A DNA stretch of 16,439 bases, taken from IMG/VR virus record IMGVR_UViG_2657244940_000012; one strand, written 5' to 3'. Source of the stretch: a virus. Its lineage: Duplodnaviria > Heunggongvirae > Uroviricota > Caudoviricetes. The position numbers were made by a program. Below, piece after piece: positions 9,001 through 12,000 of the stretch. Numbering within the stretch: the stretch's first letter is position 1; every line of letters begins with the position of its first letter.

Positions 9001-12000
9001 CCATTTCTCAAAACAGAGCAACAATGGAGGATAAATGGAAAAAAACTCAATCAGGCTCGCTGGAATTTTCATTACGAAACAGCCCGCTCAAATTACTTTC
9101 TTGAATGCTTCGGGGACTCTCTGGCTATTAAAGAGGGGTATCCAAGGACTATTTATGGCTTTGACGCAATATATCTTTATCTTGCCGGAAAATACGGATG
9201 GACTATTGCTCAGTGTCGTTCAATGTCGACTGAGGACATTCGCCTTGCTCTCGCAACAGAGCTAGAAGCATGGACACCCCCTCAAGATGTGATGATTGAT
9301 GAGTGTCTCTCCCGGAATGATTGATATTGTTAAACTCAAACATCTTGCTCCTGGCAATAGCCTCAACGGTATTCCAGAATAGCGATGGTTCTGTTTTCTG
9401 CTCTGTTTTATCAGCAACAGAAAGCAACGTACCTGCGCCTTTCTCAAATTGTTGTTGATACTCATCAAGCCAGGTCAGATCAGGAGTAATTCGTACCAGT
9501 TCGAGTGAATATTCCATGGCATCCGTCATGTATTCTTTCGGGATGCCATTTTCTTCAAGAATTTCCTCAACCTTCTGGCGAATAACCGGAACCAGGAAAA
9601 GCAGTTTTGTTTCACGATTACCGAGTAGTTTTTCCAGATCGCGCACAGCCTCTTCTGTCTGCCGCTTGCCCATCATAGCTTGATGCTCTTTATTCAAATG
9701 CATGTTTAGCTCCTCGTTAAGTTAATGTGCGGCTACGCAGACTGTTATTTTCCTGTACGCAACGTCTATAGAATGTCAGTACACGCTGCATAACTTCGCT
9801 CTTCCGGCACTCTCGACAAATTATGTTGTAGCGTCTGTCGTAGCGCCGGATTTCCCCATCAGGTAATGCCCGGATAAGACCGGGATCAACGACAAGCGGT
9901 TTCTTCGACTTTGCTCGTGAGAGTTTTTTGCGGGCGTTTTGCCAGTCCTTACGCGCCTGCTCAGACGGGAATAAACCATAACCTGAGTCGAATATAGCGC
10001 CACTGACAACCAGTTCTCTGGATAAACGGCTGACAGCTGTCTTGCTGACTCCGGTTTCAGTAGCCAGTTGCCTGAACGTTCCCCGACCATTCAGGCGCAC
10101 GAGCTCCACAATACGCGCCTTCAGTTCTTCCCGCTGTTCGGGTGTAAATACTTTTGCCATAAGCTCTCCAGTTATCACTTTTCTGATGCAATGCTGCTGG
10201 ATGAATCGGTAATCTGCATGACAATTTCCCGGTGTTTATTCAGCTCACGTAGTGCGGCACAAACACGCTCCCACTTCTGGACCTGTTTTTTGGCGCGACG
10301 AAGTTCTCGACTGGCAGCATGCAGCGGTGGAAGCATCACCGAACTGGCAGATTTTTCGGTGAATGATGGAACTTCCCGGATAAACTCATCTGTACTGGCC
10401 TTTGCCGTGCTCTCTGATGCCAACGGAAAACGATTCATTTCATCGCCTGCCGCGCTGTTTTCTGCTTCATGGTGGCTTTGTTCATCCTGCGATGATGACG
10501 CGCTCAAATCGCCGTTTTCGACGTCAGGCTTTTTGTAATGGAATCTTCCCTTGATGGAGACACGTACCAGGCGCCCCGTTGCTGTTACCACCGCCAACGT
10601 GGAAGCAACCTTACGAGTGGTAACTCCGAACTTATCCGCCAGTTCCTCACAGGTTGTAGCCCCCTTCTGAGCGATAAACTCAATCATCATGTCAGCGGTA
10701 ACTTTTGGAGCGACCTCTTCGGTTACCGCATCCGGCGCTTCAGGTTGTAGTGCCTGCCCTTCGGTTACCCCGGATTCACCTTCGACAGCCAGAAACCAGG
10801 TGTGACCCGTTTTATCAACAACGCCATTTTTTTTGAGTTCCCACAGTTCGTTGAGAACTTCTTCACGGCTGATATCAAGCCGCGCCGCCAGTTCAACAGA
10901 ATTGGCTTTTCCCATCGCTTTCAGTGCATGCAATACGGTTTCCATCGAAAATTTACCTCGTCAAAAATTCTCACATACCCTGACGTCCAACGTTTGACCG
11001 CCAGCTCTCCCAGTTAAAATTCACCCAACGACCACCATTCATGGTCATACGGTCCATCACCCGATCGCCGAGGAGTGTGCTCATCGCTGCGTGATTCAGG
11101 TTCGTCAGGATCCCGACAGTGCGCAGTGATGCCGTTCTGCGGTCAACGATCTGGTTCAGTATGACCTGCTCGTTGCGCGTATCCCGCTGCATGCCAATTT
11201 CATCAAGGACCAGAAGGTCAACTCCACAAAGCTCCTGTAAAAATTTTTCCCCGGACTGGCCGTTGTCGTAGCTGTCATGCAACACGCTCATGACATCGGA
11301 CACGGTGACGATAATCACGCTTCTCCCCTTCGCCATCAGCCGGTTGCCAATCGCTGCTGCCAGGTGATTTTTACCGGTACCAGGTTTACCGCTGAACACG
11401 AAGTTTGTACACCCGGTCATCAGTTCGTCAGCGATGGATTTCGCCTGGCTCAGAGCGTGGCGCTGTCCGTCGTTCTGCACCCGGTAGTTCCCGAATGAAC
11501 ACTTTCGGTGAAGCGGCTGAATACCCGAACGGTTCAGGATTTTTTCAACCCGCGTCTGGTGATTCAGGCGGTTAATTTCCTCGCTGCGCTTACGGCCCTC
11601 AGCCAGTTGCCATTCCCGCCACTCGTCGGTCGTCCGGAACGGTGCTGTCACGTGCGGTGGTGCCAGGCGGCGCACTCGTTCAAGAACCCCTCCAGTCGAA
11701 ATGTTTTTCATGGCTGATTACCCCCTGAAACCCGGCGGAATTTCAGTATCCGGTTCAGAAATGTGATTCACGCAACGCTGGCTGACTGCGCCAGCCTTAG
11801 GCAGCGACCACGGATTTTCGAAATTCCTGTTCGGGCCAAAAAACGTCGATGCCTGCTGAACAAATTCAGTTCCCGCTTTCCCGGTAGCCTCCAGGTATCT
11901 TGAGTAACGCCTCACGCCATCCAGCACGGCATCCGGTGACACCCCCTCGCGTAATCTGGCCTTCCAGGAATTGAATGCGGCTCTCTTCGGGTTTGACCCT

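Follow-up and report, generated by a model that had tools for sequence, protein, structure and literature searches.

The window (the whole 16,439-nucleotide stretch of DNA analysed here) carries a small prophage gene whose reading frame is broken directly after its start codon, very probably by a recent indel of the ordinary inactivating kind at a minor hot spot for mutation. Compared with the common, intact form of the gene, the window has lost one base. Intact relatives read ATG GAC AAA AAA CTC in a single frame, and alignment reveals that the C of codon 2 is missing from the window, converting GAC AAA AAA to GA- AAA AAA and fusing GA with the A6 run to create A7. An earlier note on this DNA had listed a recent inactivating deletion among five options, and the close relatives bear this out. 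As a result pointing to a pseudogene or error, the same note had named homologues whose ORF is intact in one frame and whose homopolymer differs in length; such homologues, differing in sequence at the site, were looked for and found.

Reading frames and alleles at the start of the gene

In the sequence itself, a plus-strand Shine-Dalgarno GGAGG (9026–9030) is followed by an ATG (9035–9037) and by seven A at 9039–9045 (gAAAAAAAc), the last constituting the frame-shifting lesion as judged by alignment and the allele table. The GGAGG is kept in all window-type loci and in those of the type of L019, a diverged E. coli O121 locus. In intact alleles the ATG opens a 96-aa ORF, MDKKLNQARW.... In the window the protein-like ORF occupies the −1 frame relative to ATG 9035, being open from 8995 to TGA 9322–9324; this frame has a stop at 8992–8994 and then no ATG, GTG or TTG until 9223. 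An ATA at 9031 was considered as a non-canonical in-frame start and rejected, as it abuts the Shine-Dalgarno with no spacer. The two-frame layout described previously (GGAGG, ATG and A7 out of register with a start-less ORF ending at 9324) is therefore confirmed from the sequence, but the claim that the ATG frame soon terminates is not, 76 codons being read before TAG 9263–9265. A frame that stays open for about 110 codons opposite a gene is not unusual by chance; the two-frame observation is meaningful because the −1 frame encodes a conserved protein, as judged by homology.

Ribosomes starting at ATG 9035 would read a 76-codon nonsense frame (9035–9265, plus strand; MEKNSIRLAGIF...SQQS), the exact product of which is present in the public collection. 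The conserved body of the gene (codons 5–96 and the stop, 9046–9324, plus strand), recognized by homology, codon-position bias and an AlphaFold2 model, would be out of register by −1 with its own ATG and would have no usable start. A body without a start would make the allele null or strongly reduced, and we infer from the sequence that the function of the small gene is lost in the window. The allele has intact orthologues, differs from them by an indel and has no rescuing in-frame start, three features of a frameshift pseudogene.

Comparison of loci places the window in a small group. ST866 and seven other window-type loci read GGAGGATAAATGGACAAAAAACTC, whereas the window and four further loci (L010, L011, L030 and L031) read ...ATGGAAAAAAACTC; at the site itself, intact loci have ACAAAAAA, the five carriers AAAAAAA, and a further variant, L002, ACAAAAAAA. 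Exact protein look-up found the intact 96-aa product in at least 1000 public contigs and the 76-aa window product in 40 contigs and 91 index blocks, the blocks being mostly independent sequencing runs. Among other E. coli prophages, the unbroken gene is common. The A7 run is identical in all five carrier loci whose DNA was read, and all 24 contigs read encode the identical 76-aa product. L010 and L011 (100% and 99.97% identical to the window over 6 kb) are IMG/VR contigs from two different genome projects, L031 is an NCBI assembly whose left flank differs, and L030 is an ENA metagenome scaffold. L031 has 11 differences from the window in 2173 flanking bases and another toxin–antitoxin cassette, placing the A7 allele in two slightly different prophage backgrounds. 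Its presence in both backgrounds and in 91 index blocks means that the allele is inherited and not a sequencing error; its descent is clonal, within a single group of E. coli prophages.

The downstream ORF is perfectly intact in every A7 carrier read, L031 included. A very recent lesion predicts this state, and continued selection on a leaky allele is also compatible with it.

The same gene is broken in other, independent ways elsewhere. One allele retains GAC and has gained an A (GAC+A7; L002/P0206, 14 contigs), bringing the ORF into the frame of upstream ATGs to give products of 100 aa (P0216) and 124 aa (P0206); another reads GAC+A5 (P0221). Further lesions are a frameshift at codon 18 (P0006), an internal deletion (P0004), a 2.1-kb deletion (L012) and a premature TAG (L009). 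Off alleles are nonetheless rare, totalling about 55 contigs vs at least 1000 intact, and each is clonal, with identical flanks. The gene's 5′-terminal A run is a minor indel hot spot, other strains having the GAC+A7 and GAC+A5 alleles.

Possible recoding, tuning and switching at the A run

A conserved recoding signal is absent. Close relatives are single-frame, the two-frame arrangement is not conserved among homologues, and the diverged homologues have no A run at their start (ATG AAC AAG GAA in L013, ATG GTC AGC AAA CTA in L019). No structure better than shuffles was found 3′ of the run (9046–9120, z = −0.08). The run comprises seven A and occurs in the derived allele only, whereas programmed transcriptional slippage is expected at conserved runs of about ≥9 A/T (PMC5009743). 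The programmed −1 frameshifting or transcriptional slippage that the earlier note had offered as an option is thus not supported: the layout is not conserved, downstream structure is lacking and there are only seven A.

There is still a form of recoding to weigh, in which the indel is compensated (a 'savior' indel). A trickle of protein would arise by −1 slippage on A_AAA_AAC (codons 3–4) or by an added A and would be useful to prophage or host, so that the allele is kept. We consider this unlikely, but several observations agree with it. The heptamer is correctly phased with ATG 9035 (ATG G|A AAA AAC|), and slipping by −1 leads into the conserved frame at CTC 9046, at once restoring a 96-aa protein changed only at residues 2 and 4. 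Such a slip would yield a normal-length MEKNLNQARW..., and an RNA polymerase adding one A would yield MEKKLNQARW.... IS1 uses the same heptamer for proven −1 frameshifting with no known stimulator (PMC4066793), and low-level compensation of homopolymer indels is documented for herpesvirus thymidine kinase (PMC5009743). The intact downstream ORF and the two backgrounds of the A7 allele also fit, and the GGAGG lying 8 nt upstream of the heptamer may speak against a plain null, this element being the initiation Shine-Dalgarno that is present in all intact alleles too.

Against compensation stand the rarity and derived nature of the arrangement (40 contigs vs at least 1000 intact) and the lack of downstream structure. 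The heptamer is also a weak one: in E. coli A_AAA_AAC is far less shift-prone than A_AAA_AAG (PMC5009743), and motifs without stimulators reach only 2–10 times the 0.055% background (PMC4066793). The runs for which transcriptional slippage is reported in bacteria have about 9 A or T (PMC5009743), and the run here has seven. Other broken alleles of the gene (the deletions and the codon-18 frameshift) cannot be compensated in this way, indicating plain decay. Any residual expression would accordingly be an accident of the deletion having created an IS1-type A_AAA_AAC in frame, and slip or added-A products would probably reach no more than sub-percent to low-percent levels; a sub-percent leak from the window allele is possible but unproven.

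The occurrence of several tract-length alleles at one site can be read as a tuning knob. Developed further, the A run (codons 2–4) would be a selected expression-tuning site, with GAC+A6 giving full expression, GAC+A7 an intermediate level by coming into frame with weaker upstream ATGs, and the window allele a trace through IS1-like −1 slippage in the first four codons, possibly aided by the Shine-Dalgarno 8 nt upstream. Selection would act through lysogeny stability or superinfection, which a gene converging on and overlapping an early-operon gene would affect. We regard this proposal as improbable.

Very unlikely is the phase-variable homopolymer switch raised in the earlier note, in which the A run would change length at high frequency and turn the gene on and off within a population. 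A weak hint in its favour comes from the four states found at one site in close prophages (GAC+A6, which is on, GAC+A7, GAC+A5 and GA+A6), and from the GAC+A7 ORF joining the upstream ATGs of P0216 and P0206. However, with 6–7 A the run is short for hypermutability, the window lesion is a lost C and not a changed number of A, and diverged family members have no run at all. The A8-revertant product expected from the window allele is absent, by exact look-up, from a collection of about 15 billion proteins, and the off alleles are both rare and clonal. Frame-changing tract polymorphism among close relatives, one mark of a contingency locus, is thus seen here; frequent reversible switching within a lineage is not.

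A homopolymer sequencing or assembly error concealing an intact sequence, the remaining option of the earlier note, is excluded: single-base miscalls are classic in homopolymer runs, but the missing base is a C and not an A, and the allele recurs in L010 and L011 (two genome projects), L031, L030 and the 91 index blocks, effectively refuting this explanation. The deletion is best read as an ordinary inactivating one.

The small gene, its family and its convergent neighbour

What the deletion breaks is, on the strength of its homologues, a genuine, conserved and mostly unannotated prophage gene. L013 encodes an intact 103-aa homologue (54% identical, E = 5e-35), and L019 encodes a 99-aa homologue within a locus 74% identical to the window; the diverged homologues share 54–61% identity and lie in different contexts. 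A full HMMER scan of 1.84 billion proteins returned 127 family representatives at E ≤ 1e-3, and there are 82 profile matches in Vibrio, Shewanella, Xylella, Yersinia and others. We define the family here as helical proteins of ~90–105 aa, to which the repaired window protein aligns over residues 1–86 with significant full-length HMMER similarity, retaining the family motif LECFGD...EGY...G(F/I)(D/E)AI.LYL..KH.W...(V/C)..M...D(I/L)R..L..E..GW..P. Outside the overlap with the neighbouring gene, differences from L019 fall 12/5/23 by codon position, the third being dominant. AlphaFold2 predicts an all-helical 96-residue product (pLDDT 88.2).

Database profiles give a distant link. All 40 of the family representatives compared match NCBIfam NF033230 weakly, at profile positions of about 62–108 (best E = 1.4e-11), and 13 of the 40 match phrog_5286. 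The NF033230 cut-off is 70 bits; P0001, a near-identical intact allele standing in for the window protein, scores 26.1 bits, and every one of the 40 representatives falls below the cut-off, making this a distant relationship and not membership. The window-type protein has no match in Pfam or PHROGs. The family alignment likewise has none in Pfam, and PADLOC gives a single marginal match (E = 0.0096, 1 of 40 members). No relative emerged from a protein-pattern scan that took a single genome for each species; the genome representing E. coli evidently lacks the prophage.

A spurious antisense frame was first suspected from TL-2011c-type phages, which lack 8993–9187 and whose substitutions follow the minus frame; this was dropped on finding the diverged homologues. 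The proposal that the plus ORF is a chance frame antisense to the 166-aa gene, with 8902–9202 intergenic as in RefSeq, can cite that missing segment, the empty Pfam and PHROG searches and the absence of any annotation of the ORF in RefSeq among 39 complete E. coli genomes holding its 5′ half (11 window-type and 28 with the 74%-identical homologue), but homology already refutes it: the 166-aa gene leaves two thirds of the ORF (9035–9202) uncovered, protein homologues at 54–61% identity occur in different contexts among the 127 representatives, substitutions are third-position dominated, the structure model is confident, and the NF033230 and phrog_5286 matches recur across representatives.

The prophage is lambdoid (Stx-phage-like), and the small gene runs antisense to its early-right operon, oriented as the repressor gene. 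Family members in Yersinia, Xylella and Shewanella prophages have the same antisense placement. The convergent operon gene (166 aa; 9203–9703, minus strand) matches phrog_25397 over its full length (E = 6e-113), and a CDS of the same length is annotated in RefSeq relatives. The two genes overlap 3′ to 3′ by 122 nt (9203–9324), in agreement with the ~120 nt noted earlier. The minus-strand stop of the operon gene (CTA, 9203–9205) falls among the codons for the conserved GWTI of the small gene, and likewise in L019. In phages lacking the 5′ half of the plus gene, wobble positions of the minus strand account for 14 of the 21 variable sites (P = 0.0018); when two lineages retaining both genes are compared, the codon-position pattern in the overlap is flat (8/8/10). 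BLASTP of the minus-strand ORFs overlapping the plus gene was not significant between the window and L013, so the minus partner is not conserved across the whole family. The overlap appears to be genuine on both strands. The contention that at least one of the overlapping annotations must be imperfect is not supported, with coding-type conservation being found in both ORFs.

Upstream of the small gene, RNA folding predicts two plus-strand leader hairpins. The first (8948–8969, CCGGAUG...GUGUCCGG) is also present in L019, and the 45-nt block 8948–8992 is kept in TL-2011c-type phages as well. The second (8975–8999, GACCUCACG-loop-CGUGAAGGUC) differs from that of L019 by one compensatory change (U-A to A-U) and by two further changes that pair only as G-U, i.e. 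only in plus-strand RNA. The plus-strand leader of L019 folds with z = −4.5 and that of the window with z = −1.78. In addition, UCUCCAUUU (8998–9006, plus strand) is complementary to both the Shine-Dalgarno region (AAUGGAGG, 9023–9030) and the start region (AAAUGGA, 9033–9039) and may occlude the initiation site. No Rfam family was found in 8600–9400 on either strand, and a consensus promoter and terminator scan found neither a plus-strand promoter upstream of 9035 nor a terminator after 9324.

Significance and closest known systems

The frameshift itself carries little weight, being another broken prophage allele. For genome scans the lesson is that an RBS and ATG whose frame differs from that of a good ORF, with a short homopolymer at the junction, should be taken as a mutation unless homologues share the layout. 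Of more consequence is the family to which the ORF belongs, comprising widespread, structurally confident small proteins with no Pfam entry; the missing RefSeq annotation of the ORF in the 39 complete E. coli genomes is apparently due to its overlap with a longer convergent ORF. The 122-nt antisense overlap bears signs of constraint on both strands, which makes the two genes candidates for a truly overlapping pair in lambdoid and Stx-type phages. Recurrence of the plus gene antisense inside early operons of several genera suggests a lysogeny-time role.

In its setting, the small gene recalls the morons, lysogeny-orientation genes embedded in lambdoid early operons: it has its own Shine-Dalgarno and lies on the strand opposite the early lytic operon, in the direction of the repressor gene. 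It differs in that the consensus scan detected no promoter or terminator for it and in overlapping the 3′ end of a neighbouring operon gene by 122 nt, which typical morons are not known to do. In protein sequence, the nearest groups are the 'ECs1072 family phage-associated protein' of NF033230 and phrog_5286, all phage-associated and weakly matched, although the NF033230 profile spans 142 positions vs about 95 residues here and scores lie far below its cut-off.

Phase-variable contingency loci of Neisseria, Haemophilus and Campylobacter carry homopolymer tracts close to the beginning of the gene. The window resembles them in having a homopolymer in the first codons and length variants among related strains that shift the frame. 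In contrast, its tract is 6–7 bases, the variants are rare and clonal, the base lost is not part of the tract and no reversion is seen.

For the lesion, the G7 run of herpes simplex thymidine kinase offers a close parallel, in which a single-base indel in a 7-base run breaks the frame and slippage could restore some product (PMC5009743). There, a drug-resistance benefit and residual activity have been demonstrated, whereas the window case is known from its sequence. The nearest likeness in the heptamer is to IS1 insA–insB′, which shares the identical motif, its phase relative to the upstream frame, the E. coli host and the lack of a recognized downstream stimulator; low efficiency would be expected (PMC4066793, PMC5009743). 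The putative shift site of the window differs in lying at codons 2–4, directly after initiation. The two-frame layout of IS1 is the conserved wild type and makes a needed fusion protein, whereas in the window it marks a rare, derived allele, the gene normally having a single frame.

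Two reading frames and a missing base

The sequence around the small-gene start (...CAACAATGGAGGATAAATGGAAAAAAACTCAATCAGG...) is differentiated on the plus strand into a GGAGG motif (9026–9030), an ATG (9035–9037) and a run of seven A (9039–9045). Translation from the ATG (MEKNSIRLAGIF...) proceeds for 76 codons until a TAG at 9263–9265, and the earlier note was mistaken in describing this frame as one that soon terminates. The −1 frame (codons beginning at 9037) stays open between 8995 and its TGA at 9322–9324 (...GKKLNQARWNFHYETARSNYFLECFGDSLAIKEGYPRTIYGFDAIYLYLAGKYGWTIAQCRSMSTEDIRLALATELEAWTPPQDVMIDECLSRND), has no ATG, GTG or TTG before 9223 and is overlapped for 122 nt by the minus-strand 166-aa ORF (9203..9703). 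The two-frame arrangement about the A7 run and the convergent overlap, as first noticed, are thus evident in the window.

A megablast search against complete E. coli genomes and phages located the whole region at ~97% identity in 11 chromosomes and one Stx1c phage. The ST866 start reads ATG GAC AAA AAA CTC AAT CAG, opening one 96-codon frame (MDKKLNQARW...). The window lacks the C of GAC, and strain 2013C-3033 has GAC then seven A, one base in excess. Across all fetched loci, the intact form ACAAAAAA is present at 17, the AAAAAAA form in the window, L010, L011, L030 and L031, and the ACAAAAAAA form in L002. Single-frame intact homologues in related prophages favour the deletion among the options originally raised; judged by this comparison, one base of the common form has been deleted in the window allele, and the A7 run is a by-product of that loss.

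Two separate IMG genome projects supplied loci L010 (100% identity to the window across 6,282 nt) and L011 (99.97% across 6 kb). A public protein collection has the identical 76-aa out-of-frame product on 40 contigs, and the gene index places it in 91 blocks, which include a metagenome scaffold from ENA and an assembly from NCBI (L031). L031 has 11 mismatches to the window in 2,173 nt, with a different toxin–antitoxin cassette in its left flank. Recurrence of the identical allele in these separate sources rules out a sequencing error; the allele is heritable and occupies two or more slightly different prophage backgrounds.

A small gene family and its convergent partner

The plus-strand ORF is a genuine small prophage gene, conserved and for the most part missing from annotation. 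A word-indexed search, returning six near-identical E. coli clusters only, first suggested a spurious frame; this was overturned by diverged homologues, the codon-position pattern of the differences and a structural model. In viral contigs, a tblastn-confirmed scan found an intact 103-aa homologue (L013), which is 54% identical across 85 residues (E = 5e-35) and has an AAGAGG ribosome binding site of its own. Scanning 1.84 billion representatives in full with HMMER gave 127 proteins at E <= 1e-3 (17 at E <= 1e-10), mostly of 90–105 aa, with some tandem doubles and one fused to an HTH domain. Profile searching added 82 matches, including Vibrio, Shewanella, Xylella, Yersinia and Paraburkholderia, labelled 'hypothetical' throughout. 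In 28 complete E. coli genomes, Rac-like prophages carry a DNA homologue with 74% identity (O121 RM8352, L019:2546–2845, is one of them). Leaving out the overlap, the window and L019 differ 12/5/23 times at codon positions 1/2/3, which is the mark of purifying selection acting on the plus frame. The AlphaFold2 model, built with 72 family sequences, is entirely helical (pLDDT 88.2, pTM 0.72). Each of the 40 representatives matches NCBIfam NF033230 ('ECs1072 family phage-associated protein') at a score under its cut-off, and 13 of the 40 match phrog_5286; Pfam has no entry for the family, which also lacks a PADLOC model, a relative in the PDB and any fold match that could be interpreted.

The 5' half of the gene (equivalent to 8993–9192) carries an annotated feature in 0 of 39 complete RefSeq E. 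coli genomes (11 with the window type, 28 with the 74%-identical form); the intact 96-aa protein appears in draft assemblies under 'hypothetical protein' entries such as EHJ4615582.1. The omission is systematic, and the overlap is its probable cause.

The 166-aa ORF has a full-length match to phrog_25397, its residues 95–147 also match the phrog_1363 C terminus, and a CDS of equal length is annotated for it in RefSeq. In TL-2011c/P13374-type Stx phages, and in others, 8948–8992 and 9193–9424 are retained but 8993–9187 is missing, and with it the ribosome binding site, ATG and first 51 codons of the small gene. In these phages, minus-strand wobble positions account for 14 of 21 variable sites in 9203–9324 (P = 0.0018), with 4–7 differences per 40 residues in the minus protein versus 7–10 in the plus frame. 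The overlap pattern is flat (8/8/10) when the window is compared with L019, both genes being retained in each, and is led by plus-strand wobble (8/10/16) against L013, whose minus ORF is unrelated to the 166-aa ORF. In the window and L019, the minus-strand stop (CTA) lies inside conserved GWTI codons. The substitution patterns, phrog_25397 match and stop placement make both strands look coding; neither annotation need be wrong, where the earlier note held at least one imperfect. Constraint appears to act on both strands of 9203–9324, a lead given the small counts.

Prophage setting

The window corresponds to the early-right region of a prophage of lambdoid, Stx-phage-like type. Its minus strand encodes an O-like replication gene, DnaC-like ATPase, DUF1627, DUF977, the 166-aa gene, an 85-aa gene, ORF6N antirepressor, NinB, YbcO, RusA and Q; the plus strand has the S24 repressor, a RelE/HTH cassette and the small gene. 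Elsewhere, among L020–L029, the small gene sits in the pL operon, flanked by N and KilR and again convergent with a minus-strand ORF overlapping by 122 nt. Among L032–L040, Yersinia, Xylella and Shewanella prophage members lie antisense inside early operons, and one Paraburkholderia copy adjoins AbiJ and Thoeris ThsA/ThsB. The gene is a mosaic module of E. coli pL (N...KilR) and pR (replication...nin) operons, members in early operons always taking the repressor's orientation.

Immediately left of it, 7530–8593 (+) is a swap-prone toxin–antitoxin slot, holding a RelE-family toxin (PF06296, E = 7e-46) then two HTH_3 proteins; relatives have TumE/HVO_A0114 (L001), RelE/ParE with one HTH (L002) or Gp49 with HTH (L031). 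Two full-length STnc100 sRNAs (Rfam RF02076; 2857–3066 and 3342–3533, both minus strand, 138 and 145 bits) lie between the Q antiterminator region and a 667-aa SASA-esterase gene. C4 antisense RNA (RF01695, 7304–7388 (−)) and IsrK Hfq-binding RNA (RF01394, 7415–7489 (−)) are immediately upstream of the ORF6N/P22_AR_C antirepressor gene (6577..7251 (−)).

The small-gene leader (8948–9034 (+); L019 2455–2545) has two hairpins kept at 74% DNA identity, one stem combining a compensatory U-A to A-U exchange with G-U pairing that works in plus-strand RNA alone. Folding of the L019 leader gives z = −4.5, and UCUCCAUUU, 3' of the hairpins, is complementary to the Shine–Dalgarno sequence and start codon region. 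The leader may act as a translational occlusion element.

Decay, tract length and frameshifting

Lesions elsewhere in the small gene include a codon-18 frameshift (P0006), an internal deletion (P0004), recombinant fusions (P0003, P0005), a 2.1-kb deletion fusing window-equivalent 9276 to 11400 (L012 3232–3243) and a premature TAG six codons ahead of the usual stop (L009 ~3270). The picture from this spectrum is ordinary decay of a dispensable prophage gene. The original observation was correct, and describes an ordinary one-base deletion; the frameshift itself is of low interest, the gene family and conserved antisense overlap being the more useful by-products.

A phase-variable switch, with A-run length turning the gene on and off, draws on further tract states, GAC with seven A (P0206, 14 contigs; P0216, one contig) or five (P0221, one contig), which mark the run as a small indel hot spot, but the tract is brief, its variants are rare and clonal, the base lost in the window is C rather than A, and the A8 revertant protein is absent among ~15 billion sequences. 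With GAC and seven A, the ORF joins the frame of upstream ATGs at window-equivalent 9024 and 8952, and this allele may not be null. At the L002 locus (1675–1710, 2013C-3033) the extra A restores frame with those ATGs; gene callers predict N-terminally extended proteins of 100 aa (P0216) and 124 aa (P0206).

Programmed −1 frameshifting, by which a slip would rescue the product, is in keeping with the A_AAA_AAC that the deletion has placed in phase with the ATG: slippage would reach the conserved frame at CTC 9046, yielding MEKNLNQARW... at normal length. IS1, its stimulator not established, is a proven case at the same heptamer (PMC4066793). Against this, the layout is a rare derived state (intact product on at least 1,000 contigs, window product on 40), an A run is lacking here in diverged homologues, and the 75 nt 3' of the tract show no more folding than shuffled sequence (z = −0.08). 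A_AAA_AAC is far less shift-prone in E. coli than A_AAA_AAG (PMC5009743), heptamers without stimulators reach merely 2–10x a 0.055% background (PMC4066793), and bacterial transcriptional slippage, also raised in the note, is described for runs of ~9 A or T (PMC5009743). Any rescue of the window allele would thus be a sub-percent accident and not a device.
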